In this document: positions 4,440 through 60,445 of the stretch, piece by piece
Layout of the letters: each line of letters starts with the position of its first letter
How positions within the stretch are numbered: position 1 is the first letter of the stretch
Assembly: GCF_963921235.1 (NCBI RefSeq)
Contig: NC_086097.1
Coordinates: forward strand, 113,152,001-113,216,000
DNA from: Mobula hypostoma
Taxonomy: Eukaryota
Length of the DNA stretch: 64,000 bases
Direction: 5' to 3'
Notes under the pieces: generated by a model
What the model saw: the letters and a program-made list of their open reading frames with translations, nothing else
What the model was told of the DNA's origin: nothing
Databases searched by the model: none
Program-made: the position numbers and the translations under genes

Positions 4440-5645
4440 AGTTAAATTGAATTTATTTCAATACATGAGGATTAACAGGTGAAACAGATTAACTCAGAGC
4501 ATGGATTCACTCTGGAGGACTGGTATGTTATAGCCATGGCTGAGAGAAGGGGAGCTCAGTGTTCCAGGATACAGATATTAAGTCATGACAGATGAGCAGG
4601 TAAGCGAGGAGGGAGTGTTGGGTAAAGCACACACAATGCTGGAGGAACTCAGCAAGTCAGGCAGCATCTATGGAGGGGAATAAACAACTCACGTTTTAGG
4701 TCTAGACCCTTCGTCAGGACTGGAAAGGCAAGGAGGCAGAAACCAGAATTAGAAGGTGGGGAGAGTGGGAGAGTTCAAGCTAGCCGGTGAGCCTCTTGAG
4801 GGGGAAGGCATGTGGGTTGGGGGAGGGGGAATGAAGTAGGAAGCTGGGAGGAAACAGAAGCCCCTTCTTCTTCAGCCCTTTACCTCTTCCACCTATCCCT
4901 TCCCAGTATCTTACTTCATCAGCCTCCCCTACTCACCCACCTACCTTTCCCCTCACCTGGCCTCCCCTATCAGCTGCCAGCGTGTACTCTGTCCCCTCAC
5001 CACCTTTTTAGTCAGGCTTCTGTCCCCTGTTCCAGTCCTGAGGAAGGGTCTCGGCCCAGAACATCAACTGTTTTCTCCCCTACATAGATGCCGCCTGACT
5101 TGCGGAGTTCCTCCAGCATTCAGTGGGTGTTGCTCTGGATTTCCAGCATCTGCAGAATATCTTGTGACTGTTGCCATTTTGATAAGAAAGAATGCAGCAG
5201 CAGCAATGCTTAGAGATGACATCCTTGGGGGCGTGTCCATTACAGACATGAATAGAATTTAGGAAGAAGAAGTGGAGGGTGGTCACTTTGGCGTGGCTGT
5301 ATTATGGATACTACCACATGAGGTGACAGGAATTTGAGGAACGGGCATGCAGAGGAATTGCTCTGTGTTGCAAGAATAACAGGGTGGTATTAATTGGAGA
5401 TATTAACTTTCCTGGCATTGACTGGGTCACCCAGACCAAGAGTGTTAAGGGCCTGGGCAGAGTAGAATTTGTGCAATGTACCCTGGAATGTTTCCTGAGC
5501 CAATTTAAAGAGGACCCTACATGGGAAAGTGCAATATTGGACCTCCTCTTGGGACATAAAGCAGGGTGCATAACAGAGTTTCCAATCATGGAGCACTTTC
5601 ACTCCAGTGACTATAAATCTATTTGTTTTAAAATTACAATGAAAA
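4440..5645 (+). mobile_element. Older CR1 LINE, ORF2 apurinic endonuclease region (5' part; continues at 10450)
   Basis: ORF 5384..5692: VLIGDINFPGIDW...DPTWESAILDLLLG...EHFHSSDYKSICFKI (APE motifs GDFN and SDH, decayed). Interrupted by the 4628-5166 insertion. Confidence 0.8.
4628..5166. mobile_element. Palindromic Penelope-like terminal-repeat insertion with two hammerhead motifs
   Basis: The left arm (ACACAATGCTGGAGGAACTCAGCAAGTCAGGCAGCATCTATG..., purine-rich) is the imperfect reverse complement of the right arm (...CATAGATGCCGCCTGACTTGCGGAGTTCCTCCAGCATT). CTGANGA cores lie near 4712-4718(-) and 5038-5044(+). Confidence 0.8.
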
Positions 5646-5997
5646 ATTGCACCCAGTGGGCGGCGTTGAAGTGTAAAATGGGGCAAAACTGAAAAGGGTG
5701 ATGAATACAGGATTGATGGTGTTATATTTGAATGCACACAGCATACGGATTAAGGTAGATGATCTTGTTGCACAGTGAGAGATTGGCAGCTATGATGCTG
5801 TGGGCATCACTGAATCATGGCTGAAAAAATATCATAGTTGAGTGCTTAACATCCAAGGATACAAACTGTATCGAAAGGATAGGCAGGTAGGCAGAGGGGG
5901 TGGGGTAGCCTTAGAAAGAGGTGACGTAGGATCGAAAAAGGGAGAATCCTTCTAGAGTTATGAAACTACAAGGGTAAAAAGACCTTGATGGAAGTTA

Positions 5998-7552
5998 CAG
6001 TACCTTGTAAAGATATTCATCCGCCAACCCTTTGTTCACATAAGTAAGTATTACAACCAGGGATTTTGATCAATTTAACTGAGAACTTTTATTTGTGAAT
6101 CGCTAGCTCCTTTTTTTCCACAGAGGAGCCCAAAAAAATGGGGGAAATTGTAAAACATAAAAAACTAAAAATTCAGAGACTGAGTATCAGCACTTCAAAA
6201 GTATTCATTCTCCTTTACTCAGTATTTAGTTGAATCACCCCTCACAGCCAGCAGTCTTTTTGGATTAGCTTTGTACAATGTAGTGGAGCAAGATCTGGCC
6301 ATTCCTCCCTGCAAAATGGCTCAAGCTGTGCCAGGTTAGTTGAGGAGTGATGGTAGACTGCAGTCTTGAGATCTTTCCACAGACGTTCGATCAGGTTAAG
6401 ATCAGGGCTCTGACTGGGCCACTCAAGGACATCAATTTTCTTCATCTGGAGTCACACTATAGTTGCTCTGGTAGTGTGTTTTGTGTCTGAAAGACAAACT
6501 TCCTCCCCAGTTTAAGCTTTCTGGAAGAGGCTAGCATTCATCTTCCCATCAATCCTGACCAAATTTCCAGTCCCTGCTGCTGAAAAGCATCCCCATAGTA
6601 TGATGCTACCTCCATCATACTTTACAGTAGGGATGGTATTACCTGACTGATGCACAGTAGTAGATTTATAGCACATGTACCACTTAGCACTGAGGTCAAA
6701 AAGCTCCTCGGTAGTCTCATCCAACCACAAGACCTTCTTCCACATCTTTACACTATCTTCTAAGTAACACTTTGCAAAGTCTTTATGGGCAAGGATATGA
6801 TATTTTTTTCTAGCTAAGGCTTCTCCTTTGTCATTCTTCCATAAATACCTTTTTTGTGCAAAGCCTTAAGAGATTATGGAGCCATGAACTTCATCTCCAC
6901 TTGCTGCCACTGACCTCTGTAGATCACTCAGAGTGACGGCTGGAATCATAGCAGACTCTGTTATAAGAGCCATTCTTCTCTGGCAATTAAGATTAGAGAG
7001 ACAGCCTGGCCTAAGCAGTGTGGCTGTGATTTCATTTTTTTTCCACTTTTTCACGATGGACTCCACAAGCTCCAAAGTATGTTCAATGCCTTTGAGAAAC
7101 TTATACCCTTTCCCAAATTTGTGCTTCTCTATAATCATTTCCCTGACTTCCCTTGAATTCTCTTTTGTCTTCATTTTGGTTTGGTCTGCTGAAAATCTAC
7201 CAGAAAGAGGGGTTACTTATTCTTATGAATTCCTTGAAAACAGGTGATCCTCCAATTTTCTACATCAGCAAATTGGGTGAATTGTAATAGAAAGTAATAC
7301 ACAGTGTTGCACCTGCAGAAAGTTAGTATAGTAATTACAAAGGCAATTAACACTTTTTCAGCCTCACAATTTTGATTTTTAACTTTAAGTAGATTGTTGA
7401 CAGGTTTTGAAATATTTCTTTTGATTTGACATGATGCTAAATGTTTTGCAGATTATCTCAAAAAATTCTACTTCAATATATTTTAAATTTAGAAAATGAG
7501 GCAGCAAATTGTGAAAATAGTTGTGGGGGTTGAATACGTTTTCGAAGCTCTG
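5998..7552 (-). mobile_element. Full-length Tc1-family DNA transposon, transposase pseudogenised
   Basis: TA|CAGTACCTTGTAAAGATATTCA ... TGAATACGTTTTCGAAGCTCTG|TA (degenerate TIRs, TA TSD). Minus ORFs MKTKENSREVREMIIEKHK (paired/HTH), [40 protein letters not shown] (DD34E motifs). Confidence 0.93.
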
Positions 7553-7654
7553 TATATACAGGCTTCAGAACAGTAGCCAGGATGTGGGCTAAAAATTACA
7601 AGGGGAGATAGAAAAAGCTTGTAAGAAGAGCAATGTTGTGATGGTTATGGTGGA

Positions 7655-7878
7655 TTTCAAAGTTCAAATTTCTAAGTGTATTTATTACCGAAGTACATAT
7701 ACATCACTACATACAACCCCAAGATTCATGTCCAGTAAATTCAAGACTCAACAGAATTAATGAGAGTCCATGTTCATAAGGACAGACTAACAACCAATGT
7801 GCAAAAGACAACAAAATGGTGCAAATAAAAATTAAAAAAAGAAAGAATACTGTAAATAAATAAGCAATAAATATCAAA
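7655..7878 (-). mobile_element. Rex1-like 3' tail nested in CR1
   Basis: TTCAAAGTTCAAA...TTTATTACCGAAGTACATATACATCACTACATACAACCCCAAGATTCA. The CR1 GDFN|MQIDW sequence resumes after it. Confidence 0.75.
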
Positions 7879-9656
7879 ATGCAGATAGATTGGGAAAATC
7901 AGGTTGGTGCTGGATCCCAAGACAGGAAAATTGGAGAATACCTATAAGATTACTTTTAGAAGCAGCTCATGCTGAGCCCACTAGGGAAACAGCAACTCTG
8001 AATTGGGTGTTATGTAATGACCCAGATTTGATCAAGAGGCTTAAGGTAAAGGAACCCTAAGGAGACAGTGATCATCATTTGATAGAATTCACCCGCAATC
8101 TGAGAAAGGGAAGCTAAAATTGGTTGTATCATTATTACAGTGGAGTAAAGGGAATTACAGAGGCATGAGAGAGGAGCTGGTCAAGTTGATTGACACTAGC
8201 AGGGATGATGAGAGAACAGCAATGCCTGGAGTTTCTGGGAGCAATTCAGAAGGTGCAGGAAAGATACATCCCAAAGATGAAGATGTCTTCTAAAGGGAGG
8301 ATGAGGCAACTGTGGCCGATAAAGGAAGTTAAAGACAGCATACAAGCAAGAGAGAGGGCATATAATAAAGCAAAAATTAGGAGGATTTCAGAGGGTTGGG
8401 AATCTTATAAAATCAAACAGAAGGTAACTAAAAAAGCCATAAAGAGAGAAAAGATGAAATCTGAAGTAAGCTAACCAAGTATATAAAAGAAGATACAAAA
8501 AGTATCTTTCAAATTTGTAAAAGAGAGGAAAGAGTGAATATCGAACCACTGGAAAATGATGCTGGAGAGGTAGTAAAAGAAATGGCGGACAAACTTAATA
8601 AGTATTTTGTGTAAGTCTTCACTGAGGACGACACTAGCAGAATCCCAGAAATGCAAGAGTGTCACGGGGCAGAAATAACTGTCATTGCTATTACTAAGGA
8701 GAAGGTGCTTGGGGAGCTGAAAAGTCTGAAGATAGTTAAGTCACCTGGACCAGATGGACTACACTCCAGGGTTCTGAAAGAGGTAGCGGAAGAGATTGGA
8801 AATGCATTAGTAATGATCTTTCAAGGATCACTAGATTCTGGAATGTGTCCAGAGGACTGGAAAATTACAAATGTCAATCCACGCTTTAAAAAGAAAGGGA
8901 GGCGGTAGAAAGAAAACTGTAGGCCAGTTAGCCTGACTTTGGAGTTTGGAAAAATGTTGGAGGTTTCATGGTGCTTGGAGGACTAAGAGGAAATCTTGCC
9001 TGACAAATCAGTTGGAATTCTTTGAGGAAATAACCAGCAGGATAGAACAAGGACAGTCAGACAAGGTGCTTAACAAGATAACAGCATATGGTATTACAGG
9101 AAAGACACTATCATGGATAGAAGATTGGCTGTCTGGCAGGAGGCAAAGAGTGGGAGTAAAAGGAGCCTTTTCTGGCTGACTGCCAGTGACTAGTGGTGTG
9201 TTGCAGCGGTCGGTATTGGGACAGCTTCTTTCCACGTTTTATGTCAATAATTTAGATGAAGGAATTGACAGATTTTGGCCAAGGTTGTGGATAATGCAAA
9301 TATAGTTGGAGGGGAAGGCAGTGTTGAGGAAGAAGAAAGACTAACACAGACTGGAAAAATGAACAAAGATGTGGCAGTTGGAGTTTAGAGTAGGGAAGAG
9401 CATTATTATGCACTTTGTATAAGTTTTCTGGGGAGAAAATTTTAAAAACTGGGAGTCCTCGTGCAGGATTCCATAAAGGTTAATTTGCAGGTTGAGTCTA
9501 TAGTACGGAAGGCAAATGTAATGTCAGCATTCATTTCAATACAAGAGCAAAGATGTAATGTTGAAGCTTTATTACGCACTTAGAGTACCATGAGCACTTT
9601 TTGGCCCCTTATCTAAGAAAAGTTGTGCTGGCACTGGAGAGGGTCTAGAGGAGATT

Positions 9657-13329: not shown

Positions 13330-13705
13330 AAGTCGAAGTTCAAAGATCAAAGTAAATTTATTATCTAAGTACATATATCTCAACATATACTGCCCTGAGA
13401 TTAATTTTCTTGCAGGCATTCACAGTCAGTACAAAGAAGCACAATAGAATAATTGAGAAAATGGATACAAGACGGGCAAACAACCAACATGCAAAAGGCA
13501 ACGAACTGTACAAATACAAAGAACAAAATAATAACAATTGATAAATAAACAATAAATATTGAGAGCATGAGATTAAGAGTCCTTGAAAGTGAGTCCATGG
13601 ATTGTGGGAACAGTTCAGTGTTGGGCTGAGTGAAGTTGAGTGTAGTTATCCCCTCCGATTTAAGAGCCTGATGGCTGAGGGTTAATAACCTGTTGATGGT
13701 GGTGG
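13330..13705 (-). mobile_element. Rex1-like LINE 3' end
   Basis: AAAGTCGAAGTTCAAAGATCAAAGTAAATTTATTATC...CCCTGAGATTAATTTTCTTGCAGGCATTCAC, the same family as 961-1310. Confidence 0.75.
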
Positions 13706-16659: not shown

Positions 16660-17460
16660 TTGCAATCAAACTGAATCATTAAGTTCTCTGAAGACACAAC
16701 AGTGGTTGACCTCATCAAGAACAACAATGAGACAGCGTACAAAGAGGAGGTAGAGTGGCTGGTAGAATAGTGAGAACAACACCTTGAGTTTCAATGTGGA
16801 CAAGACCAAAGAGGTGACTATGGACTTTATGAAGGTGCAGGCTGGCCACGCCTCATTACACATAAATGGTTGCTCCATGGAGAGAGTTCAGAGCACCAAG
16901 TTTCTGGGAGTACACATAATGGATGATCTCACCTGCTCCCACAACACCTCTTTAGTCAAGAAAACTCAGCAGAGTCTCCATTTCTTGAGGAGATTGAAGT
17001 GAGTGAGGCTCTCCACCCCATCACTCGAACAAGTTTTTGCAGGAGCACCTTTGAGAGTGTTCTGACCAGCTGCATCACCATCTAGTAAGGGAATAGCAAG
17101 TCATCTGACTGCAAGTCCCTATGAAGAATGCAAGGATTGCTGTGAGGATCATCAGGATCTCTCTTTCATTCATCAGAGATATTTAACAGGAGCGCTTTAT
17201 ATCAGGGCCTCCCATCTGTCCAGCAATCTCTTTAACCCTCTTCCATTAAACATGAGCTACTGTAGCATTAGGTCAAGAGCTGTTAGGATAGCAAACAGCT
17301 TTTTCCTCCAGGCCGTATATGGCTACTGAACTCCCTGCCACCACCCGGTCTCATCATGTATGAGGTGGCAGTAGCGTTAAACTGGTTACTTGTATGTTTG
17401 GTGGTATACATGTGTATGGTTGAGTGGCAGTGCACTGAACTTGAACATGAACTTGAGTTC
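16660..17460 (+). mobile_element. Rex1-clade LINE RT C-terminus and 3' end
   Basis: SFNVDKTKEVTMDF...INGCSMERVQSTKFLGVHIMDDLT...LHFLRRLK; tail TGAACTTGAACATGAACTTGA. Confidence 0.85.
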
Positions 17461-18034
17461 CTGCGCATTGGAGTCTCCTTATAATTCATATTAAAAGATT
17501 CATACTTTCTGCTTTTATCAGCCTAATCTGTACTGTATGTGTGCTACCTCTAAGAATCATCTTAAGATGAAATGTTTATAATTACTTGGTACTTTTCTAT
17601 TTTTTTTTTTGCTATCAAGGAAGTGATACAGCAGTCCATTGGTGCCTTGGCTTTAAGTACCGCATTGGAAGATCATTGCTATTGATGGCATAATTTCCAG
17701 GCAAGTCTCTTAGCAGAGCCAGAAATACATTTCATAGGTCACTGACATATCATACAATCCTATCTCAATGATCTATAATAGGAAAGATATCCTAATATTA
17801 CTTGGCACCATTTGAGGATTGCTATGAAATTCAATGATAGTCATTGATTGCAAATACCAACTATGTCTCATATAGCTTCATCCCTCTTCATTTCACTTTG
17901 CTAATTGTACATCCACAGTCTCCACCACTCAAAACTTTCTGTAATATCATATTATGTGAGCTACTTACAAAATCTCCTACTGCTACATAAAGATATTTCC
18001 TACAAAAAATCATTTCCATCTGACTTTGGAACTA

Positions 18035-18535
18035 GCTACAAGAGATTCTGCAGGTGCTGGGAATCTTGAGCAGCACACACAAAATGCTCAGACAGTGTCT
18101 ACAGAGGTGAATAAACAGTTGATGTTTCAGAGTGAGACCCTTCATGAGCACTGGAAAGGAAGGGGGCAGAAGCCAGAATAAGGAGGTGGGGATAGGGGAA
18201 GGACTACAAGCTGGCAGGTGATAGATGAAGCCAGCTGAGGGGAAAGAGGGTGGGTCTGTCGTGGAGGGATGATGAAGTAAGAAGCTGGAAGGTGATAGGT
18301 GGAAGGGCTGAAGAAGGAGGAAACTGATAGGAGAGGACAGTAGAACATGGAAGAAAGAGAAGGAGGAAGGGCACCAGAGGGAGGTGATGGGCAGGTAAGG
18401 AAAAGTGCAGGGGTTAGAGGTAACCAGATTGGGGGAATTGGAAAAGAGAGAAGTTGGGGGGGGGGGGAGAATCAGTGTATATTCCCCTGCTTTGATGCTG
18501 CTGCATGACCTGCTGAGTTTCTCTTGCACTATGTA
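18035..18535 (-). mobile_element. PLE terminal repeat with a short inverted copy at the right end
   Basis: ACAAGAGATTCTGCAGGTGCTGG...GATGTTTCAGAGTGAGACCCTTCATGAGCACTGG followed by a purine-rich tract. 18475-18535 is the same tail on + (GATGCTGC..TGACCTGCTGAGTTTCTC). Confidence 0.75.
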
Positions 18536-18754
18536 TAATATGTGTTGGAAATAGATATGAAAGACTGGTAATATGCTCTTTTCTACTATTGGGACTTATC
18601 ATTGCTGATAAATGTTTGATGCTTGGTATAACTGTGTAATGTCAGGCAGAATGATGTTTGTTGCCTCTATGACACTTTCCATTGGCATTTTTCCATCCAA
18701 ACACATTAAAGTGCAGAAGCAGATTCCTGTTCTGGTGTGTTGTCTATGTTCTAA

Positions 18755-19040: not shown

Positions 19041-19335
19041 TTTCTTGACTAAAGAGGTGCTGTTGTGGGACCAGGTGAGATCGTCCGTTATGTGCAATCC
19101 CAGAAACTTGGTGCTCTGAACTCTCTCCACGGCAGCAGCCATTTATGTGCAATGAGGAGTGGTCAGCCTGCACCTTCGTGAAGTCCACAATCATCTCTTT
19201 GCTCTTGTCCACATTGAGACTCAAGTTGTTGTACTCACACCAGTCTACCAGCCACTCTACCTCCTCTCTGTATGCTGTCTCGTTGACACTGTTGATTAGA
19301 CCAACCACCGTTGTGTCATCAGAAAACTTAATGAT
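19041..19335 (-). mobile_element. Rex1-clade RT fragment
   Basis: KFSDDTTVVGLINSVNETAYREEVEWLVDWCEYNNLSLNVDKSKEMIVDF; same family as 16660-17460. Confidence 0.85.
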
Positions 19336-22629: not shown

Positions 22630-22863
22630 CCTTATATTTCGTTTGTTTATTTATTGTTGTTTTATTATTATTATTTGTTTTTTTTCAATTGCACAGTTTT
22701 TCTGTTTACACATCAGTTATTTTTCAGTCTTTGTGTGTTTTTTAATTGATTCTATTGCATTTCTTTGTTCTACTGTAAATACCTGCAAGAAAATGAATCT
22801 CAGGGTAGTATTGTATACAGTGATATATACATACTTTGATCATAAATTTACTTTGAACTTTGA
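22630..22863 (+). mobile_element. Rex1-like 3' tail
   Basis: CCTGCAAGAAAATGAATCTCAGGGTAGTA...TAAATTTACTTTGAACTTTGA. Confidence 0.75.
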
Positions 22864-28497: not shown

Positions 28498-28630
28498 CAA
28501 TTGATGAAGGATCTTGGCCCGAAATGTCAACTATTTATTCCCCTCCATAGATGCTACCTGACCTTGTGAGTTCCTCCCGTATTTGGTCTGTGTTGCTCTG
28601 GATTTCCAGCATCTGCAGAATCCCTTGTGG
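28498..28630 (+). mobile_element. PLE terminal-repeat fragment with a decayed hammerhead
   Basis: TTGATGAAGGATCTTGGCCCGAAATGTCAACT...CCATAGATGCTACCTGACC...TTCCAGCATCTGCAGAATCCCTTGTG. Confidence 0.8.
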
Positions 28631-28664
28631 TTATGGAAGCTGACAATTGTAATGTCTAACAAAC

Positions 28665-28862: not shown

Positions 28863-29615
28863 TATCTACTCAGTCATCTATTGTTTCGAATAGAAGGCTT
28901 ATTACTGGGAAAATGACTGAATACCCCACCATCAGCTATATCATTCATGATGGTTAACATAATCTAAGTAACCAAATAATACCTTACCATTGGGAACTCC
29001 AGCCTACAACTAAATTAAAAATGGAAAATGGGGACCAATAATTTATAATTCCTTTACTAAGTTTATCTTCTATCGTAAATTTTATAGTCAGGTTCTCTTT
29101 AAAAAAAATTCAACAACATCTGAATAATTCTCTTATTGATCATCTTTATACAGCTTGTGGGGGGGTGGGGGTCAAATACGACCTGCTTCCAATACAGATC
29201 TGTCTATTCTGATTTGGCTTCTGAGGCCTATATGGGACTCTCAACGGTTTAGAGGCACAAGAGGCCTAGTGGGATCAGTGGGTTGCGAGCCTGGGAGGCT
29301 CTACACTCCCTCTGCTATTGCTATATGGGCTCCACATGCCAGTCTGAAAAAATTCAGGAGTCAGAGCTTATATTATTCTCCACATTAAATGGCGATGGAC
29401 TAGGATTCCTAAGAGTTAATGAGGATATATTGCATTTTATCAAGGAGGCTTCCATTTGTCCCTGTCGTCATCTCTTAGAATGACAGAGATCAGTTTAATG
29501 TGCATACAAGTGTTGTCTCCTTTCCTCACATGGAATGGAAGATCTTGCAGAGTCAGGTGTACTTGTCCAGTGCTTTGAGTTCTTGATCTGTGAACACATT
29601 TTTCCTGCTGTCCAC

Positions 29616-29616
<1 letters not shown>

Positions 29617-29665
<49 letters not shown>
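29617..29665. repeat. (AC)n microsatellite expanded from the ACACACAA seed of a PLE tail
   Basis: Perfect AC run leading directly into ATGCTGAAGGAACTCAG. Confidence 0.97.
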
Positions 29666-29667
<2 letters not shown>

Positions 29668-29822
29668 GCTGAAGGAACTCAGTAGGATAGGCAGCATCTA
29701 TGGAGAGGAATAAACATTCAATGTTTCAGGCTGACACCCTTCATTAGGACTGGAAATGAAGGGGGAAAAAGCCAGAATAATAAGGTGGGAGGAGAGGACG
29801 GAGTACAAGCTGAAAGATGATA
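29660..29822 (-). mobile_element. PLE terminal-repeat fragment with a decayed hammerhead
   Basis: Minus strand reads CAGTC-CTAATGA-AGGGTGTCAGCCT-GAAACATTGAATG. Confidence 0.8.
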
Positions 29823-30192
29823 CTCACTGAGAGGTGACTCCTGAGATGTGAAAAGAGATTAACAGTCTTGTTGTGGACTATTATTGTTGAACAGCCAGTC
29901 TTGCACAGCAGGAACATTTCTCTTAAAGATGTTTAGAACCAAAACCCTTTCTTCCTTAGGCTTCAGTAAGTAAGTTAATAATTTCGAGCATGGCCTCCAA
30001 GTTATCAAGTACTTATATGATGGCATAACATGATGTTTAAGGTAGGAGTGACTTTGGTTATGCAGCGAAGGTGATGAAGACTCATCAGTTTATATATGAC
30101 AAGGTGAACAGATACAAGCCTTCAACCACCAGGCCCCTGAATCAGCATTTATAACTTCACTCACCTCAACTCCAAACTGATTCTACAACCTA

Positions 30193-30412
30193 TCCCTCCC
30201 CCTCCTGTCTTCTCCTATCATTTTGGATCTCCCCCTCCCCCTCCCACTTTCAAATCTCTTACTAGCTCTTCCTTCAGTTAGTCCTGACGAAGGGTATCGG
30301 CCCAAAACTTCGACTGTACCTCTTCCTAGAGATGCTGCCTGGCCTGCTGCGTCCACCAGCAACTTTGATGTGTGCTGTTTGAATTTCCAGCATCTGCAGA
30401 ATTCCTCATGTC
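30193..30412 (+). mobile_element. PLE terminal repeat (second subfamily) with a near-intact hammerhead
   Basis: TAGTC-CTGACGA-AGGGTATCGGCCC-AAAAC-TTC-GACTG at 30279-30316; CAACCTAT is repeated on both flanks. Confidence 0.8.
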
Positions 30413-38802: not shown

Positions 38803-39424
38803 ATAGAAGTTCTGCAACACAAAGAAGGACAAGAGAAGATCTGCAGCATACTGGAAGGCATCCAGACACACTTCCCAAAGGTGCAGAGTCAAAAGTTGTG
38901 GTTGGTGTAAAGCCATAGCCTTTGAGGCAAAGTTCATCCAGCTCTTTATCTCCATGAACCCATGGTTTGCACTGATCTTATTTAGATATGGTGGAGCATA
39001 AGTCAGAGGCAAGCTGACCTGTAAGGAGACTCTCACTGTGGGTTCTCAGTGGAACTGCTGGCCACAAGCAATATATCTTGACCCAATATCATATGGTGTT
39101 CTTCTATTGCTCGAACGAGAGAAGCAGCATCCTTCTTTAAGGCACACATGTTCTAGGCAAACTTAGATGACTTGGGTGTACTGAAAATCAAATGCCTAGT
39201 TTTTATCTACTGTTAACAGCTGTGCAGTTCATGCACGGTAGTACTATGATAAACATTAATGTTATAATAAATTCTCCCAGTAGAAGTTTTATGACTTCAG
39301 TATTAATATTTATGTGTCACATCAAGCGTCTGAAATGTAAATTGACATCATACAAAATGTAAATACTGATGATACATGGAACTAGGAAATCCAATGATGA
39401 AGCTTAGAATCTTGCAGTGCATTA

Positions 39425-44465: not shown

Positions 44466-45079
44466 AGCTCAGTCTATCCAGTGCCTTAGAGTTAGCCAGT
44501 TACTCGGTAGGGCCAAAGGTCATACATTCAAAAGACAGCTTTATTTGCGTAGCAACAGTCCCTGGCATGTTTGCTCTTCAAATTCTTCAAATGTGGCACA
44601 ATGAGAACATAATTACAGTTTCCTGTACAGAAGTCAATGACGTACACAATCTATAATTAGATAGCACTTTTGGTAATTGTATGGAAGTTCTGATGAAAGA
44701 TCATTGGATGCAAATTATATTATTTTGAGCCAGATGCACTCTGGCTTGATGGGTATTTCCAGATTTTCTCTGCTATGTCAGATTACCAACATGTACAGTA
44801 TTTTTGCTTTGGGATTATGTATGAAAATGCCTGTCTTGTTTGTTTCAAACGGAGCTGAAATGAGGAAGGCATTTCTCCTTGCCAACATTTTGCTTAACAC
44901 TTCCTGGATGTGTGCACTAAAGACACTGGATATTGAATTTTAGGAACTGACAACATAAAGGTTCACAATCACTTAAAGTGACTTCTTGGTTCTGATATTT
45001 TTGAAGCATCTTACTGCAGATACACCAACAACATAATGGTCTTTCTTGTGAGATAGGAGTGTGTTAATCTACAAGAATA

Positions 45080-45700
45080 CGAGGGGTGATTAATAAGTTC
45101 GTGGCCTAGGGTAGAAGGAGTCCATTTTAGAAAACCTAGCACATTTATTTTTCAATATAGTCCCCTCCTACATTTACATACTTAGTCCAGCGGTCGTGGA
45201 GCATAGGATCTTGGACCTTCAGAAGGTGCCCACAGCAGGGGTGATTAATAAGTTTGTTGCCTGAGGTAGAAGGAGATAAGTTATACAGCTCTCGTTACAT
45301 GCATGTGCAGTTCAACTCTTTGAGTGATTATGCAGAAAGTTTGAGGTTAATAACTCTTCAGGGGTGATTGATAAGTTCATGGCCTAAGGTAGAAGGAGAT
45401 GAGTTATTAACTTCAAACTTTCTGCATAATCACTCAAAGAGTTGAACTGCATGTGCATGTAAAAAAGCTGTATAACTTATCTCCTTTTACCTTAGGCCAC
45501 AAACTTATCAATCACCCCTGCTGTGGACCATTTTCTGGAGGTCCAAAACGCTGACTTCTACAAAGAAGGGATCCATATGCTCCATGACTGCTGGACTAAG
45601 TGTGTACATGTAGGAGGGGACTATGTTAAAAACAAATGTGCTAGGTTTTCTAAAATTGACTCCTTCTACCTTAGGCCACAAACTTATCAATCACCCCTTG
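45080..45700. mobile_element. Foldback mariner-derived MITE with five TIR copies
   Basis: TA|CGAGGGGTGATTAATAAGTTCGTGGCCTAGGGTAGAAGGAG ... CTCCTTCTACCTTAGGCCACAAACTTATCAATCACCCCTTG|CA. The right arm encodes the mariner C-terminus DFYKEGIHMLHDCWTKCVHVGGDYVK. Confidence 0.9.
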
Positions 45701-45729: not shown

Positions 45730-46200
45730 TGGGACAGTGATCTCAAAGAGCGCTATCACAAGAAGGCAGCATCCATCATCAATGACCTCCAACATCGAGG
45801 CCAAGCTCTCTTCTTGGTGTTGCCATCAGGAAGGAGGTACAGAAACCTTAGCTCCCACACCCCCAGCTTCAGGAACAGTTATTACCTTTAACTCATCAGC
45901 CTCTTGAACCAGCTTGTGTAACTTCACTCAACTCAATACTGAACTGATTTCACAACCTGTGGGCTCACTTTCAAGGATTCTCCAACTCAGTACTTTTGTT
46001 TAATATTTTTTAAAAAAATTTTATTTGCATAATTTGCCTTCTTTTGCACATTTGTTGTTTGTCTTCCTTTGTTGGGTAGTTTTCATTGATTAAATTGTAT
46101 TTCTTTACTCTTTTCTGAACACCTGCAAAAAAATGAATCTCAGGGTAGTATGTGATGACATATATATATTTAGATAATAAATTTACTTTGAACTTTGAAC
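45730..46200 (+). mobile_element. Rex1-like LINE 3' end
   Basis: KERYHKKAASIINDLQHRGQALFLVLPSGRRYRNLSSHTPSFRNSYY; tail TTTGAACTTTGAAC. Confidence 0.85.
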
Positions 46201-46614
46201 CTCAAATGATTCAGGATGCAAGCTTACAATCATCCTAATAGTTAATGAGAAGATATATTGGAACAGTACTGTCACTCATGTGGAAGTTAATCTGTACAAT
46301 CCATCATTAGTTTTCCCATAATCACTATCTAACTAACTCTAAACAGTAAAAAGGCAATGAGATGAAAATACAAATCCTCAGCCATTCATTTTTTCTTAAA
46401 TTTGTGCTTAGAAGAATGAATTTTCAAATTGTCAGATCCTTAGAGAAAATATTCACAGTTCTTATTTCACTGGATGGCAATGGAAAGAAAAATAAAGTTG
46501 TTTTTTTCCTCTTTCATACCACCTTAATGAACAATAGGTTGAAAACCACCCCAATGATATCTAAAGAATTAAATGGAAATCATCCAGTCTTCTCTTACAT
46601 AGGTTAGGCTCATT

Positions 46615-47510: not shown

Positions 47511-48828
47511 TAACTTTATGTTAGGTATTAGAATTCCCATTCAAATTCAGAAAAAAATACAATGATTTCAGATTCTGAAGCTCTGATTCTGGCATCTACA
47601 AATTTAATGTATAGTTTGCATTGGGGAAAACAACACACAGAAATCAGGCTATCTTTAAATGCTTTATGTCTGACCTGATTTCTAGAAAGCCACTCAAGTC
47701 TACTATAAAAGGTTAAAATCACTTCTGTTGGAATGGATTCCCTTCAGATTCAATGACGGGCACTAGAATGACAGCACACATAGAGGAATAACATTATTTA
47801 AAAGAAATGTACAAAGAATAGAATGAATACGGTAAGGGGTAATAAAAAGAATCAAAATCTAAAACTTCATTCAATTGGGTAGTTGAACATTCACTACTTT
47901 CAACATTGTTCCACTAAAAATGAACTCTATTTCATTATAATTTTACAATCATGCTGCTAGTTCTTAATGGGGCATATCTCCCAATGGTCCATCAACAGTT
48001 CTTTTCAGAACCAGTCACATTTCCAGGTATCTCCGACTGGAAGGCAGGAAAGTTTAATTAAGTGCTTGTTTTTTCCTTCTTCTGATTGGCCCCCCATTTA
48101 TCCATGGAGCCCAAATAAGTCAGTTGAGCCTTCTGCATCTGCAGATGGCCTCCACCACTGCCAATCTGAATCAGCACACCCAAACTTCTGGAACTGTACA
48201 GCAAGTGACGCAATCCAATTTAAATGATTTAGTGAGGTTTGCTCATGACTTCACACAGTGGTTCTTTATAAGCAGAAAAAAACAATTATAATGTGCTCTA
48301 TAAAGAATGAGCAACAGAATCCTGTTTGTTACTAGAGCATATTCTTAGCCTATGTGATCCCAATGTCATCCATAAGTTGCTTCCTGTACAAGTACAAAAT
48401 GCTAAACATTGCTCAAATTAGGATCTAATGTACATTCTATTAAGCTCCATTCCACAACACTACCCAATTATTCTTTTCAAGGATACTTGGACAGCCCTGA
48501 CCTGTAAGGCTACAAAATTAATTTGAGAAGATGGAATTAAGCTGGTTAGTTCTTTCCTGCCTGGCAGATCCACAGTTTGGGTATGATTCCATGAAATCTC
48601 ACACAGTGGAAGTCAGTCTAGATGTGTGTGCCCATCATAATGAGATGCTGCTTTGACAGTCAATGCACTGGATGTTGAGGGAGAGCCTTGAAATATCATA
48701 TGCAAGGAATAATCCAAATATCTCGCTACCTGCTAATGGTACCATACTAGCCATTGGAAAGTTAGGGCCTGTGAATTATGTCACCCTTGGCTTGTTAATT
48801 TTTATTTTCCAGGGAATGTGTGTGTGGG

Positions 48829-52735: not shown

Positions 52736-52969
52736 TGGACAGTTTAGGAAAAGGGGAAAGTGATACATGGCGGAAAATCATGTCTTCCCCTACCTGTGAA
52801 TATGATAACTTGGATCAAACAATGGACTTGCCACCACATCCTGCCATCAATAAATATTCTGTGAAGATTTCTGTGCATTAAATATCCACCAAGTGGCTTA
52901 TGAATCATAACTCAGATTACAAATGTTGCTCCTATCATATCTATGAAATAGTTTATTAATATTAATAAC

Positions 52970-53110
52970 TCTCCCACATTTTATGCTGGTGTCTTCCTCC
53001 TTCCTTCCTAGTCCTGAAGATGTGTCTCAGTCTGAAACATTGACTGTCTATCCAATTCCATGGATACTGCCTGACCTGCTGAGTTCCTCTGACATATTGT
53101 GTATGTTGCT
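52970..53110 (+). mobile_element. PLE terminal-repeat fragment; hammerhead core intact, stem II decayed
   Basis: AGTC-CTGAAGA-TGTGTCTCAGTCT-GAAAC-ATT-GACT at 53010-53045. Confidence 0.75.
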
Positions 53111-53296
53111 TTTTATTAAAGTCAACTATCTTTCCCAATTTTAGTTTAAACATCTTGATATTTTTTCTATTCATCTTATGAATTGTACACCCCTCATAAT
53201 TTTCCAAGTAAATATATTGACCACTGGTTCCAGATTCCTCAGCCAAATGAAATATCTCTCTTGCATCTAGTCCATCAAAGCCTTTAAGGATCTTGC

Positions 53297-53619: not shown

Positions 53620-55385
53620 TATGGCCTCTTGACATGAAACTATGTGGTAGAATGGTCCAGAGAACTAAGGTACAGGGGATCTGACATGTGTTGGCAAATT
53701 GAATCCACAGTTGGCTTGTGAAAAGAGACACAGGGTAGTGGTGGGTGCGTGTTTCTTCTGATTGGAAGTTAGAATTGTGCTGGATCTTTTGTTGTTTGTA
53801 AAGTGACTTAGATGAGCATGTAAGTGGTCTGATTATGAAGTCTGCAGACAACACTTAATTATTCAAGTCAAAGATAGTGAAAAAGATTGCCTGAGGGTAC
53901 AGTAGAAGATCAGTCAGCTGCAAAGCTGGGCAGACTAGTGGCAAATGGAATTTAGTCTAGCCAAGTTTGGTGATATACATATAAGTTAAATTCTTCTGGG
54001 GCATATAGAGCAAATGGTACAGAATGTAGAAGCAAGGTATGTAGAAGGACCTTGAAGCACAAGTCCATAGCGTGATGGTGGTATGAATAGCTAAGGTATG
54101 CTTGCCTTCATTAACTGTGTTGGGACATCACGTTCAGAGTTCAGAGTAAATTTACTATCAAAGTACATATATATCACCATATGGAACCCTAAGATTTTTT
54201 GTGGATATTCACGGTAAATCAAAGAAACATAATAGAAGCAATGAAAAAACACACAAAACAAGTTGGACAAACCACCAGTGTGCTAAGGACAACCAGCTGT
54301 CTGGCCCAGATGCTTTCCATGAGTTCACCCTGCTGAAGGGTGCTCTCATGTCAGCCTCAGAGACTGAAGTCAAAGGGTCGTTGAGGGAGTAGGGAGTTCA
54401 TGAAGCTGCCTCCATGTTTTGTCAGTCAAAGCAAGCATAAAAGGCATTGAGCTCATCTGGGTGTGAAAACTTGTCACATATATCACTTGGTTTTACTTTA
54501 GAGTAGATAACAGCACTCAAGCAGTGCCAATGCTGTCAAGCATCCTTCTGTGATTCCATTTTGATGCAGAATTGCCACTTTGCATATGAGGTGACCTTGT
54601 GGTGGTCATACCCAGACCTCTTGTATTTAATTGGTCACTAGTCCTAAACGCCACTGATCTGACCCGCAGCAGATTACATATCTCTCAGCTCATTCAGGTC
54701 TTCTAGTTGTGGAAGACTCTAAATGATTGTGTGGGGACACAATCAGGTTGCAGCTTCAAAACATTGTTTAGACTTTATTCGACTGAGTGCAGAACTGACC
54801 ACCAAACTCTAGGAAAAATATGGCAGCAATAGAGAGAGTGCAGAAGAGGTTCATTGGGTGGTCACATGGAATGGAGGGCTGTTGTTATAAGGGGAGAGTA
54901 GATAGGCTGGGTTTTCTCTCCCTGGGATGGAGGGCTGTCATTATTAGGAGAGATTAGATAGGCTGGGTTTTCTCTCCCTGGAATGGAGGGCTGTCGTTAT
55001 TAGGAGAGATTAGATAGGCTGGGTTTTCTCTCTCTGGAATAGAGGGGGCTAAGTGGAAACCTTATGGAGATCTCTAAAATCATGTGAGGCAGAGAAAATA
55101 TAGCTAGTGTGAGCCTTTTTCTGAGGGCAAGGGAGAAGAACAGGTTTATGGTGAGAAGGGAGAAATTAAATGGAATGAGAGGTAGTTTTTTTTTAACAAA
55201 GAGGTTGATGGTTTTCTAGAATGAGCTACCAGAGAGGTGGTAGAGAATGACAAAGTGACAATGTTTAAAAGGTATTTGCAGAGGCACTAAGGAATATAGG
55301 CATAGTGCAGGCATAGGTAGACATCACAGTTGCTGTGGACATGGTGAACTATGGGAGTAATTTCTTTGCTATGCAATTCTACAAA
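53620..55385 (+). mobile_element. Old CR1 RT and 3' end, interrupted by Rex-derived pieces (~54133-54745)
   Basis: AAGTCTGCAGACAACAC (K.AD.T), TGGCAAATGGAATTT (WQMEF), GAGAGAGTGCAGAAGAGGTTCA (ERVQKRF); heavily decayed. Confidence 0.7.
54867..55047 (+). repeat. 56-bp tandem triplication inside CR1
   Basis: Unit TGGAATGGAGGGCTGT..GATAGGCTGGGTTTTCTCTCCC starting at 54867, 54923 and 54979, with a partial fourth at 55035. Confidence 0.92.
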
Positions 55386-56127: not shown

Positions 56128-56275
56128 CCACAAGAAAATCTGCAGATGCTGGAAATTCAATCAAAAAATGCTGGTGAACGCAGCAGGTCAGGCAGCACCT
56201 ATAGGAAGAAGTATAGTCGATGTTTCGGGCCCAGTCCCTTCATCAGGACTAACTGAAAGAAGAGATAGTAAGAGA
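56128..56275 (-). mobile_element. PLE terminal repeat (same subfamily as 30193-30412) inserted in decayed CR1(-)
   Basis: CACAAGAAAATCTGCAGATGCTGGAAATTCAA..GCAGCAGGTCAGGCAGCACCTATAGGAAG..CATCAGGACTAACTGAAAGAAGAGATAGTAAGAGAT. Confidence 0.85.
56214..56251 (-). ncRNA. Minimal type I hammerhead ribozyme motif with all core nucleotides
   Basis: Minus strand UAGUC CUGAUGA A GGG ACUGGG CCC GAAA CA UC GACUA: 5-bp stem I, CUGAUGA core, 3-bp stem II, GAAA, vestigial stem III, UC cleavage site. Confidence 0.8.
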
Positions 56276-57087
56276 TCTTGCTTTTCTTTCTGTGCACCAA
56301 AGTGGATGACATCACATTTTTCTATCTACGATGTTTTGATTCACACACTCAACTTGTATATATTGCCCCTTCTCCCGTGTCAGCAAAGCCTCTTTACATT
56401 TTTTTGTACTCAAAATTCCACCTAGCTTAGTATCATAGTAAACTTCCAAATACGGCATTTGAGAAAGATTGCAAGTAGCTGGGACTGGAGTACCAATGCC
56501 AGCAGTATACCTGCCCTGCAAGTTCCCATTATAAATTCTCCAGTCTTCGTGTAAAAGTGACCCACATTTGCCCTCACTAACCCTTACCATTTTATATAGC
56601 AAACAGATTTTTTACAGTATGTCCTTATGTGTCTTGTCCTCGACTCTCATATTCCACCTTCCATTTTTTAATCAATTTTTTGATCCTCCTTCATCAAGTT
56701 CTAAAATGCTTCCAATTTTCAAGCTTAAACTATTTCTAGCGATTTATAAGCTTTTGATTTAATGCTATATATAATTTTTCTTGTCAGCTACAAATGAGTC
56801 ACTTTTCCTTTTGTATTTTTCTGTCTTAAGGGATTTTCCTTTGCCATTTCTGTGTTATTTCAAATGCTAAACACTGCCTAAGCACCTTCACACCTCTCAT
56901 TTCCTACTCTACCAAAGCTAACACTTGATTCTTTATAATTACGTTTTCCCCTACTTTTAGACTGAATCATACTTCCAAATTCAATGCAAATCCAAGCATG
57001 TTTCTTCAATTATTATCATTACTGTACCTTTCATATTTGTTAACAGAACAATTTTGTAGTTCCTCTTCTTTCATATGGTTTTATATA

Positions 57088-58284
57088 CACTCAGTGGCGG
57101 CTTTATTAGGTACCTCCAGTACATTATAAAGTGGCCACTGAGCGTATGCTTGTGGTCTTCTGATCCTGTAGCCCATCCACTTTAAGGTTCAATGTATTGT
57201 GCATTCAAAGATGCTCTTCTGCACACCAGTGTTGTAACACGTGGTTATTTGAGTTACTGTTGCCTTCCTGTCAGCTTGAACCAGTCTGGATTTTCTCTTT
57301 TGACCGCTCTCATTAACAAGTGATTTGCCACTCACTGTATGTTTCTTTTTTACCACCGCACCATTCTCTGTAAACTTTCTAGAGACTGTTGTGTGTGAAA
57401 ATCTAAGGGGATCAGCATTTTCTGAGATACTCGAACCTCCAGTACCTTATAAAGTGGCCACTGAGTGTATGTTCATGGCTTTCTGCTGCTGTAGCCCACC
57501 ACTTCAAGTTTTGACATGTGTATTCAGAGATGCTCTTCTGCACACCACTGTTTTTAAGATTAAAGTCTGTGACGAGCCTTATGGCCCATCAGGCCAGTGC
57601 TTATGCCGGTTTCCGTGACGTGAAGCAACTGAGAGTACGAGACTCTCCCCCCGCCCCACCCCCCCGGATAGGACACCAGTCTATCGTGAGGTTAACCCCC
57701 AGCATTTTTACCGGTACCCATTCTCAGCTGGGTAGACTGAAGCATTGTGTGGTTAAGTGCCTTGCTCAAGGATACACACGCTGCCCCGGCCGAGGCTTGA
57801 ACCCATGGGTTCGCTAGTCCAATGCCCTAACCACTTGGCCACGTGCCACACACACATCACTGTTGTAACACATCGTTATTTGAGTTACTGTCACCCTCCT
57901 GTCAGCTTGAACCAACCTGGTCATTTTCCACTGACTTCTCTTATTAACAAATTTTTTTTCCGCCACAGAACTACCACTTACTGGATTTTTTTTTCCTTTT
58001 GTTTTTGCACCATTCTCTGTAAACTCTGAAGACTGTGTTGTGCGTGGAAATTCCAGGACATCAGCAGTTTCTGAGATACTCAAACCACCCCACCTGGCAC
58101 CAACAAGCATTCCACAGTCAAAGTCACTTAGATCACATTTTTTCGCATTCTAATGTTTGGTCTGAACAATAACTGGGCCTCTTGATCATGTCTGCATGCT
58201 TTTATGCATTGAGTTGCTGCCACATGACTGATCTTCATTAACAAGCAGATGTACAGGTGTAACTAATAAAGTGCCCACTAAGGA
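57088..58284 (-). mobile_element. Non-autonomous Tc1 derivative with an internal tandem duplication
   Basis: TA|CACTCAGTGGC..TTTATTAGGTAC at left; inverted copies ending at 57144, 57467 and ~58284. Minus ORF MLVGARWGGLSISETADVLEFPRTT..RLVQADRRVTVTQIT is a Tc1 DNA-binding domain; no DDE domain. Confidence 0.85.
57553..57852 (-). mobile_element. tRNA-derived SINE with CORE-like and V-like central parts
   Basis: Minus strand: A-box TGGCCAAGTGG, B-box GGTTCAAGCC, CCTTGAGCAAGGCACTTAACC..CAGTCTACCCAGCTGAGAATGGG. TSD CACACCACTGTT(57541-52)/CACATCACTGTT(57853-64). Confidence 0.85.
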
Positions 58285-58869
58285 TAGATGCTCATATTCA
58301 AAAATAGGCTCTTTTGAATTTGCAAGCCTCGCACTTAAACTCAGTACTGTCATATGTTTCTGATAGAGTTGTTGTCTTGAAGCTTACCTGTTTCTTCCTC
58401 CAAAGACCCTGCCCGACTTTTTTGATATTTCCAGCAATTGCCGTTTTATTTCGTGATCCAATATCCACTAGTAAAGCCATCATGGTAGACAGAGGAGGAT
58501 GGTGGATCCATTGCCACTCTGGGATGAGTAAACTAAGAGCCCTGTTGTTACAGTGAGCCTTTTGAACAAAATCCTCTCCCCCACCCAAACTCCCATCCCC
58601 CAGCATGCAAAGTTAGCTTCATCACTGCTAATGTTGGTTGTATTTTGTCTTTGGAAATAATTAATGTTTATTCAGATTTTAAAATGAACAATCGAATACA
58701 ACAGAGTAACATTAAAAATAAGGCCAAAGTGATGTACAATAAATTGAAATGAGTTGGTAAGCAGAATAACTGACAGTGGAGATTTTCACTTATTTCAGCA
58801 TTCTGTACGCAAATACAGATGACAGAATAAATAATATTCTAATTGAAAATTAGTAAATACAGACTTGCC

Positions 58870-59430
58870 AAACGTAGGCCCTCCATTGATCAGGGTCGGT
58901 CATGGATGCTACATCTTTGCTGTCTATGCAAGTCAGGGCAGTATGATATGGAGAGCAGACTGTTGCCCAAGTCACAGGCTCCTCCTCTCCATGTAGCTGA
59001 TGAATCCAAAGGAACGGCAGAGACCGATACAGTTTGGCACCAGTGGCTTTGCAGGAGCTGCCAGTCAGGGTTGAACTCAACGTAGGACTGCCTTAGGGAC
59101 TCCGGCTCTGGATTTTTTCCTCAGCACTTACTCCCAAAGACTTCCCCAAGGAAGCGGAGGTTTGGGATCAGAGTTTTCCTTCTCCAAGATGAGCTGTCAG
59201 TCATGAGCTGCCTGAAGCGACTGGTTTTAAGGTGCCAGTAACCTGCCTTTGGCCCTTCTCCTGTCAGTAGACACCAGGTTTAGTAGCTAAGCCACATGTA
59301 AAGGCCAGGAGCTGGACCTGGTTGTCAGAGGCTATTTCAGATGCATGCTGTTGGGAGCATTGAATAGGTAGTGGGAGCTTATTCCCACTTACCCCACTCC
59401 CCGCCCCCGGCTATGACAACCTTAAGGGAC
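58870..59430 (-). mobile_element. Non-autonomous RTE-derived retroposon with an HDV-like ribozyme candidate
   Basis: Minus strand has GGAGAAGGAAAACTCTGATCCCAAACC (motif shared with 12102-12677) and CTCCTG-GCC-TTTACATGT-GGC...CTGA-CAGGAG. Confidence 0.65.
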
Positions 59431-59741
59431 CAAGTTTGCTGATAAAAAAAATTACTGATTCATGCTATGGGAGAACTAAGAACATATGAAATAGAAGCAA
59501 CAATTGGTGATCTATCCCAAATACCTTGTCCACAATTCAGTAAAATCACACTGATCCTTTATCTCAATCTAACCTAACCACAGGTGCTTTGATTTCCTTA
59601 TTACCTATGTAACAGGAACATGAAAGAAAGAAAATATTCTAAGAAATATAACATTAACTCCACAAGGGAAACCAACTAGATTCAGTATCTGTGAAAGAGT
59701 AGTAATTGTGATAAGATTGAAGGCTGAATACTTATCAGGAT

Positions 59742-60012
59742 TTTTATTTATTTATCGAGCTACAGTATGGTACAGTAAGCTTCCAACCCTCCAATCCATG
59801 CCGCCCTGCAATCCCTGACCTAACCCTAACCTAATCATGGGGCAATTCACAATGACCTATTAACCTACCAACCGGTATCTCCTTGTTTGGGACGAAACCC
59901 ATGTGGTCACGAGGAGAATATACAACGTCCTTACAGGCAGTGACGGGAATTGAACCTGGGTCACCTGTACTGTGAAGTGCTGTACTAACCACTATACTAC
60001 CCCGCCGCCCAC
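59742..60012 (-). mobile_element. tRNA-derived V-SINE
   Basis: Minus strand GGCGGCGGGGTAGTATAGTGGTTAGTACAGCAC..GGTTCAATTCCCGTCACTGCCTGTAAGGA..; tail (TAAA)n. Confidence 0.8.
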
Positions 60013-60347
60013 ATATTTGTATCTAATCAGACCTACGTACATACATAGGTGACAAAATCTAAGTAATTGTTCCAAACATTGGGATCACAAATTTCTCTTC
60101 ATTCAGCTTTTTATATTTCATTTACATGAACTTCCATAAACCATTTAATAAATTTTAGCAAAAAAGATGAAAATATATAAAATTGGTGACAACGTTTTAA
60201 CAATGCTTATAATGTAGAAGTGAGAGTAAAGATAAGGGACACATTCGTTTTGGCATGATGCAACTATTGAACTCTTCCAATTCACTATATTTAAAATAAT
60301 TTAAATTAAGGTATGAAGGTTCCGTCATCAAAGCTTAATGAAAAAAA

Positions 60348-60445
60348 TCACACACACAAAATGTTGGAGGAACTCAGCAGGTCAGGCAACATCTGTGGAA
60401 ATGAATAATCAGCCAACATTTTGGGCCAAGACCCTTCATCAGGAC
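60348..60445 (-). mobile_element. PLE terminal-repeat fragment with a decayed hammerhead
   Basis: Minus strand GTC-CTGATGA-AGGGTCTTGGCCC-AAAATGTTGGC. Confidence 0.8.

Follow-up and report, generated by a model that had tools for sequence, protein, structure and literature searches.

What kind of element left the hammerhead motifs that lie dispersed over this 64-kb stretch of DNA (the window, meaning the whole stretch analysed), each within a short non-coding repeat? Very probably, these repeats come from endonuclease-bearing Penelope-like elements (PLEs), of which they are dead 3' ends truncated on the 5' side, and they fall into two subfamilies. The assignment to PLEs is based on the anatomy of the insertions, with no parental ORF linked to the copies. 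The repeats look like a known and ordinary kind, as PLE ends with a minimal hammerhead were already published in 2014 (PMC4209133).

The first-pass annotation had listed ten hammerhead copies, nine of which proved genuine and are no more than 2-3 nt away from the positions it gave (Table 1). The tenth, at ~44690, was not confirmed, as it gave no covariance-model match at an E value of ≤10 and its GAAA/UH half is unrecognisable. The nine copies measure ~105-445 nt and match the family HMM with E values of 9e-48 to 2e-30, which is partly by construction, the model having been made from these nine; the best match in the reversed window, used as a control, had an E value of 1.7. Pairwise blastn links all nine independently of the HMM, and the model also matched two tail-only fragments beyond the listed copies. 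An Rfam scan of the window at an E value of ≤1 gave six matches with no hammerhead among them, so that Rfam misses the motif entirely. Contigs of organism B also span both junction regions of the longest copy. The copy at 30195..30410 sits inside another repeat, of which a paralogue without the interruption is found at 38526-38617.

Table 1. Copies and fragments of the hammerhead-bearing family in the window, with their flanking direct repeats (null, null fraction among random flank pairs).
Positions	Strand	Feature	Hammerhead or HMM match	Flanking direct repeat
2105..2185	+	Tail-region fragment without hammerhead; short inverted piece apparently before it (by eye, unscored)	HMM match 2141-2185, E 1e-5	
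4628..4859	-	5'-truncated PLE-type 3' end, tail-less short end; left arm of head-to-head inverted unit	4722-4685; G12>A, C17>G	
4863..5168	+	5'-truncated PLE-type 3' end with ~40-nt tail; right arm of inverted unit	5033-5070; G12>A, A13>G	TSD not clear
18036..18475	-	Longest copy, ~440 nt; pyrimidine-rich upstream region, 17-nt deletion, tail	18153-18116; G5>C	10 bp, one mismatch, from 18026 and 18545, flanking the whole 18036..18544 inverted unit; null 0.044
18476..18544	+	Inverted tail-less fragment joined to 5' end of longest copy	HMM match 18476-18536, E 1e-6	
28502..28636	+	Copy truncated within catalytic core (without stem I 5' strand, C3), tailed	~28502-28533	TSD of 13 bp, one mismatch, from 28491 and 28637; null 0.003
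29613..29830	-	Tail-less copy, 3' end running into (GT)27 microsatellite	29752-29715; G5>A, C17>U	
30195..30410	+	Second-subfamily copy, tailed	30279-30316; G12>A	TSD of 12 bp, one mismatch, from 30182 and 30411; null 0.005
44690..44801	+	Possible much older relic	Downstream part 44732-44801 weakly similar, HMM E 0.058	
52968..53111	+	Tail-less copy	53009-53046; invariant core kept, C17>U, stem II weakened, stem III broken	Possible AT-rich 8-bp TSD
56128..56278	-	Second-subfamily copy, tailed	56251-56214; best preserved; core, C17 and stem I intact; G16.2>A breaks dimer stem	
60345..60447	-	Tail-less copy truncated at stem I	60447-60410; G12>A, C17>U	Possible A-rich 8-bp TSD

In structure, the motif belongs to the minimal type I hammerheads: it consists of a stem I of 5 bp, CUGANGA, one additional A, a stem II of 4 bp, GAAA and a palindromic stem III that has no loop. 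The original hammerhead call stands, as CUGANGA, GAAA and UH occur in type I order at the level of the family majority, with G5 restored by the contig pool. All nine copies carry an extra base that sits between 9 and 10.1 (A in eight) and G10.1, whose partner, at a CpG, is C in five copies and U in four. The stem III tetramer is ACGU in one copy, AUGU in two, ACAU in five and ACUU in one, with no loop 3. Eight of these nine are thus either ACGU or one CpG transition away from it, which suggests a palindromic ancestral state at 15.2-16.2. The same architecture was described in 2014 for the minimal hammerheads (min-HHRs) of metazoan PLEs by Cervera and De la Pena (PMC4209133), which share the type I topology, the 5-bp helix I, the extra base at 9/10.1, the G10.1-C11.1 pair and a palindromic 15.2-16.2 stretch without loop 3; helix II is of 4 bp here and of 7-8 bp in the Schistosoma motifs given in that text. 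The accessible text of that paper makes no mention of cartilaginous fishes, and our literature search recognised no report of the motif in this group, although the supplements of PMC4209133 and bioRxiv 10.64898/2026.07.22.740005 may list a chondrichthyan family.

Preservation of the motif is poor. All invariant bases are kept in only two of the nine single copies, the core being broken or truncated in the other seven, and G12 is lost in four. Judged from their sequence, the copies in the window are relics and not ribozymes, because none of the nine retains both the catalytic core and stem III, the stem through which a dimer would form. In the alignment of the stems, 87% of the cells are paired against 21-48% when slid, and covariation is not significant, with a single two-sided change (carried by the 56251-56214 hammerhead) that 297 of 500 shuffles also reached; nine related copies give little power. 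When six sites were folded as single copies, z-scores ranged from +0.6 to -2.0, and the minimum-energy fold consisted of the hammerhead stems alone only at 30279. It is extremely unlikely that individual copies are maintained as working ribozymes of the host, given the core losses just described and the failure of Pfam to detect any host exon in the window. The copy at 56214 does retain the core and stem I, and non-CpG core positions differ in 4 of 70 cases against 47 of 368 downstream, but the contrast falls short of significance (p=0.11) and comes from copies that were chosen for a recognisable core.

Decay has been concentrated at CpG positions, 31 of 72 of which are changed (27 of them C>T or G>A), compared with 13-14% of the other positions. 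The two subfamilies proposed at first reading are borne out, the copies at 30279 and 56214 being 82% alike and 52-73% similar to the other seven. Different loops had been offered as a subfamily trait, which does not hold: only 3 of 30 comparable hammerhead columns differ, two of these three at CpG positions. The expectation that the core would be better conserved between subfamilies than its flanks holds against the upstream sequence (27 columns same and 3 different in the hammerhead, 5 and 19 upstream; p=2e-7), a contrast that may partly reflect poor alignment, but not against the downstream tail region (58 and 14; p=0.38).

The copies share their 3' end, and their 5' ends are scattered over positions 1-335 of a model of ~467. 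Two classes of 3' end lie ~35-40 nt apart, with five of the nine copies ending ~100 nt past the cut site and four ~62-70 nt past it. This segment corresponds to the PLE "tail", which is called unique to PLEs in the accessible text of PMC11167929. In the Poseidon element PAc of Anolis carolinensis (Frangieh et al. 2024, PMC11167929), as described there, we likewise find two 3'-end positions, set apart by a tail of 30-40 nt and located ~60-100 nt past the hammerhead cut site, and dispersed truncated copies. Two of our loci are head-to-head inverted units, starting at 4628 and 18036, with only one arm tailed in each; an inverted, 5'-truncated copy with a one-sided tail of 30-40 bp is also on record (bioRxiv 2021.04.23.441226). 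By eye, a third small inverted case can be seen at 2105-2185. The divergent pair at 29655 and 30195 was rejected as a single inverted unit, as its members belong to different subfamilies, lie ~360 nt apart and the second has its own TSD. At five of the nine loci the flanks carry direct repeats that exceed the 95th percentile for 1,500 flank pairs drawn at random, giving TSDs of 8-13 bp, two of which are AT-rich low-complexity repeats; at the other four loci this test revealed no TSD. The variable 5' ends, the two 3'-end classes, the inverted units and the TSDs together support one of the two readings initially proposed, that of extremely truncated PLE ends. The accessible text of PMC4209133 likewise presents min-HHRs as motifs that for the most part occur singly and dispersed and are regarded as truncated PLEs, with opposite-strand pairs 100-700 bp apart.

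The other initial reading, a retrozyme-like family, fares worse. Here the repeats would be monomers of non-LTR retrozymes spread through self-cleaved circular RNAs, and they do resemble animal retrozymes, as described in the available text of PMC7229834 and bioRxiv 10.64898/2026.07.22.740005, in being non-coding, PLE-related, very numerous and equipped with a type I hammerhead. Dispersed retrozyme monomers have been reported, and one chondrichthyan genome contains retrozymes. However, what defines retrozymes in these sources is tandem units of 150-450 bp joined head to tail, together with canonical hammerheads and a circular RNA, whereas the copies in the window are solitary or inverted, of variable rather than unit-like length, and carry a minimal motif. 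None lies in a tandem array (10 TRF rows in the window, none with this unit), and they are therefore not retrozymes as defined. Insertion in the manner of PLEs suits both the variation in length measured from a fixed 3' end and the inverted units in which one arm is tailed, and we consider the retrozyme origin highly unlikely.

With truncated PLE ends as the preferred reading, the lack of an RT or GIY-YIG ORF in the stubs is expected because of their 5' truncation. That no such coding sequence is visible agrees with the first-pass annotation: among 274 stop-free frames of at least 62 aa, Pfam matched no GIY-YIG or other PLE-type family. Four RVT_1 matches were obtained in the window, none adjoining a hammerhead copy, and two of them we take, from their motifs, to be non-LTR (LINE) reverse transcriptases. 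We regarded Pfam matches below their cut-offs (Deltaretro_Tax, TT_ORF2-like and others) as chance. A direct-repeat pLTR-ORF-pLTR unit, a trait of long copies, is likewise absent from the window, where no long copy occurs. Scans with the hammerhead pattern found no locus in viral contigs and none in metagenome contigs, and the 10 single matches that a 21-nt tail pattern produced in contigs of prokaryote genomes were also taken for chance. One UTR reading frame searched against 1.84 billion protein representatives had two matches, both repetitive and unrelated, and a second frame compared with longer proteins had none among 1,056 candidates. The ORF of PAc begins at stem II (PMC11167929, accessible text), whereas here the frame opened by the core ATG closes after ~20 codons, and the ATG is not present in all copies.

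From assembled contigs of public runs, the family is seen to be very large, with the core restored at the level of the majority. At sites of deviation in the 18117 copy, contigs of the DNA run X1 restore G5 at 93% of the summed depth, the stem I C at 89% and two stem II bases at 85% and 88%, and X5 agrees; 1,027 X1 contigs depart from the reference at one place, 18038. Runs X22 and X23 yielded 2,988 and 1,989 family-like contigs with no depth in 10 of 30 bins, which, as contigs only and of guessed RNA origin, reveal neither transcript ends nor level and speak neither for nor against expression. The copy number of the family appears to be of the order of 10^5. The initial inference that the genome holds a very large number of hammerhead motifs is thus correct in order of magnitude, with the reservation that the motifs in the window are decayed. 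Extrapolated from nine copies in 64 kb, the number of motifs would be well above the 4,000-9,000 that the accessible text of PMC4209133 reports for coelacanth and Xenopus, but those are intact and these are not.

The contigs also bear on a SINE-like origin, in which a short non-coding master (UTR, hammerhead and tail) without a coding parent of its own would be mobilised in trans by a PLE protein. Non-autonomous PLE derivatives have been described for Chlamys and argued for animal retrozymes; all nine copies are below 450 nt, none extends to coding sequence, and the contig depth drops beyond 18412. Nevertheless, this drop falls at a C-rich stretch, and the copy there may be too diverged to recruit contigs; one X1 contig of 1,531 nt runs ~1,250 nt past the 5' part of the copy, and the 5' ends are scattered rather than fixed. 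We regard this origin as unlikely.

Under the truncated-PLE reading, masters elsewhere would encode RT and GIY-YIG and carry the minimal hammerhead in a pseudo-LTR. Their protein would nick both target strands 8-13 nt apart, the spacing seen in the TSDs, and reverse transcription may begin inside the RNA at two sites, ~62-70 and ~100 nt past the cut site; the two 3'-end classes are seen in the copies, and internal initiation is suggested by the Anolis Poseidon. Copying would usually halt after 100-450 nt, the lengths observed. As the hammerhead would lie within the first ~100-140 nt copied, it is carried by nearly every stub, and its density would be a by-product of position. Priming at both nicks may produce the head-to-head units with one tailed arm present at two loci. 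Decay after insertion is fastest at CpG, striking G12, C15.2/G16.2 and C17/G1.1. According to published work, cleavage by the master motif probably requires either a dimer joined through the palindromic stem III or help from the element's protein. Lunse et al. reportedly described such dimer cleavage in 2017.

Since activity of the motif would depend on dimers formed through a 4-nt palindrome, and the family seems so numerous, an intact minority in host pre-mRNAs could be cleaved in trans by pairing with each other or with active PLE transcripts, as a genome-wide RNA-cutting burden or regulator. This is very unlikely, and nothing in the window shows it; if true, intact sense-strand copies would be depleted in introns. 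The family would carry more weight only if intact copies proved to cut transcripts of the host, or if its very large pool of copies served for mapping the hammerhead positions that active lineages conserve. As it stands, the known association of PLEs with minimal hammerheads gains one further, very abundant family, and the occurrence of PLE tail, inverted-unit and TSD signatures together in one window is an aid to repeat annotation.

The window is repeat-rich animal DNA, its repeats being of a kind that suggests a cartilaginous fish, with Pfam identifying remnants of reverse transcriptase, AP endonuclease and Tc1-type transposase and no host gene within the 64 kb. Nine of the ten sites that the first-pass annotation had listed as one dispersed family do belong together: pairwise blastn links them, and both an HMM and a covariance model trained on the family's own copies recover them (best match in the reversed window, E 1.7). 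Their coordinates proved accurate within 2-3 nt. At the tenth, 44690, no hammerhead was retrieved, and a match (E 0.058) is confined to its downstream part. We also found two additional fragments (18476-18536 and 2141-2185) made up only of the tail, the stretch added at the longer 3' end. Weak family-model matches at 58375-58419(+) (E 0.064) and 48137-48211(-) (E 0.009) are possibly older relics.

Read column by column, the family has stem I CAGUC, the core CUGANGA, an extra A, a 4-bp stem II with a 4-nt loop, and then GAAA, C, G/A, U and the cut-site C, after which GACUG closes stem I. The proposed hammerhead identity is supported at the level of the family majority. Rfam does not detect the motif. 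Stem cells are paired in 87% of cases versus 21-48% when slid, and a covariation check on the stems gave one two-sided change, not above shuffles. The extra base between 9 and 10.1, G10.1-C11.1, the palindromic 15.2-16.2 and the short helix I are shared with the minimal hammerhead of Penelope-like elements (PLEs), as listed by Cervera and De la Pena in the available part of PMC4209133.

The 5' ends are scattered between positions 1 and 335 of a model of about 467, and the 3' ends fall into two classes, with five copies ending about 100 nt past the cut site, once internal deletions in two of them are allowed for, and four ending about 62-70 nt past it, in a GU-rich run that continues as (GT)27 in one copy. 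The inverted units (see the table) have the arrangement given for PLEs in the accessible text of bioRxiv 10.1101/2021.04.23.441226, an inverted 5'-truncated copy with a 30-40-bp tail on one side; PMC11167929 explains the tail by reverse transcription starting at either of two internal sites and regards it as unique to PLEs. Compared with 1,500 random flank pairs, five of the nine loci lie above the 95th percentile for flanking direct repeats, which are 8-13 bp long and AT-rich at two of the five; the other four loci show none. The copy at 30195 splits another repeat, whose uninterrupted paralogue is 38526-38617; the split repeat belongs to a second dispersed family, also abundant, whose members end in short repeats of the TTTGAAC type. 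The longest copy, 18036-18475(-), is enclosed by inverted repeat arms (16672-16946 and 19061-19338, 84-92% complementarity) about 2.1-2.5 kb apart.

Between the two origins suggested in the first-pass annotation, truncated PLE ends agree with the scattered 5' ends, the two 3' ends, the inversions and the target-site duplications, whereas retrozyme monomers are highly improbable, as no tandem array holds any family copy in the window. We consider it very likely that master PLEs with RT and GIY-YIG leave 5'-truncated, hammerhead-bearing stubs that decay. Such masters would be transcribed into RNA with the hammerhead near the copied 3' end, and the PLE protein would nick both strands and prime reverse transcription from either of two internal sites, usually halting within 100-450 nt; priming at both nicks would give head-to-head inverted units, and the inserted copies would decay afterwards. 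As copying would start near the hammerhead, any stub exceeding about 100-140 nt should carry the motif. Pattern scans and protein searches for the ORF of a coding parent gave nothing or irrelevant matches; that the copies come from a non-autonomous PLE derivative seems unlikely. Cleavage in the masters may be dimeric or protein-assisted. Schistosoma minimal hammerheads show weak cleavage that requires dimers or trimers (PMC4209133), and that of an Anolis element cleaves only with protein and is dispensable for insertion in vitro (PMC11167929).

At least two subfamilies exist, as had been proposed, with the copies 30279 and 56214 being 82% alike and 52-73% alike to the others. Over columns in which these two are identical and the remaining copies show a majority base, the subfamilies differ in 3/30 hammerhead columns (two at CpG), 19/24 upstream and 14/72 downstream. 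The hammerhead is thus better conserved than the upstream flank (p=2e-7) but not the downstream one (p=0.38), in a comparison where some of the aligned upstream sequence may not be homologous and one subfamily has two members only. By these counts the lineages retained hammerhead and tail but not the upstream region, which is what cis elements of active masters should show.

The invariant core is changed or truncated in seven of nine copies (G12>A in four, G5 in two, A13 in one, C3 lost by truncation in one). It is intact in 53010 and 56214, both without the stem III palindrome, so that no copy is a complete hammerhead. The motif has four CpG dinucleotides per copy; 7 of these 36 remain intact, and 27 of the 31 changes at the 72 CpG positions are C>T or G>A. 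Within the larger subfamily (seven copies), differing cells amount to 4/70 in the non-CpG core, 18/129 at other motif positions, 24/178 upstream and 47/368 downstream (core versus downstream, p=0.11). The pattern is one of decay, with at most an ascertainment favouring the core; ribozymes kept by the host are the least probable explanation, given this p value and the lack of complete motifs.

Four public sequencing runs, all as contigs, were aligned to 17900-18700 at 80% likeness. In the DNA run X1, 37,380 contigs align, with a summed depth that peaks at 5x10^5 within the repeat versus about 5 in the flanks, which is no copy number but agrees in order of magnitude with nine copies per 64 kb. 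The very high genome-wide number predicted earlier is supported to that extent, although the copies in this window are relics. Among the listed positions at which the longest copy departs from the pool, G5 is restored by 93% of the summed depth in both X1 and X5; in X1 the same holds for 18149 in stem I (89%) and for two bases of stem II (85% and 88%). Since 18323, which lies outside the core, reaches 95%, what the pool shows is a canonical ancestor and not special core conservation. The tailed 3' end, at 18038, is where 1,027 X1 contigs depart from the reference. As contigs of organism B span 17900-18067 and 18375-18700, the longest copy was probably inserted before organisms A and B split. 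X22 and X23, guessed to be RNA, each have single contigs (depth about 3,000-4,400) over the hammerhead at 18123-18145 with several indels; they may come from a diverged family of hammerheads, or the alignment may be loose and due to chance.

The first-pass observation was a correct one, and this kind of motif is already in print: PMC4209133 describes single motifs left dispersed by truncated PLEs as well as pairs on opposite strands. Our search turned up no publication that treats this family in cartilaginous fishes; tandem retrozymes are reported in one chondrichthyan in the accessible text of bioRxiv 10.64898/2026.07.22.740005.

The RVT_1, AP-endonuclease and GDSL/SGNH-esterase remnants are as expected for non-LTR retrotransposons. 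The RVT_1 remnants at 3-830(-) and 2370-3005(+) are, by their motifs, presumably of LINE type. Rfam miRNA matches at the MITE-like repeats are far under gathering scores, and we take the tRNA-like sequence to be probably the head of a tRNA-derived SINE.

Coordinates of inverted units and other elements in the window
Feature	Coordinates	Remark
Head-to-head inverted unit	4628-4859/4863-5168	extra 35-40 nt on one arm only
Head-to-head inverted unit	18036-18475/18476-18544	extra 35-40 nt on one arm only
TTTGAAC-ending family	960-1032, 7657-7729, 13333-13405, 22684-22878, 31050-31229, 38526-38817, 45920-46213, 54127-54199	
RVT_1 remnants	3-830(-), 2370-3005(+), 25665-26423(+), 41369-41710(-)	Pfam
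AP-endonuclease remnants	5327-5689(+), 41891-42289(-), 63648-63998(+)	Pfam
GDSL/SGNH-esterase remnant	62804-63355(+)	Pfam
Tc1/mariner-type transposase remnants (DDE_3, HTH_SB)	6245-7216(-), 61885-62070(-)	Pfam
Nested inverted repeats (93-94% arms) and short hairpin, MITE-like	45082-45698, 57083-57149	
tRNA-like sequence	59935-60006(-)	below Rfam cut-off
56-bp tandem repeat	54867-55046	3.2 copies
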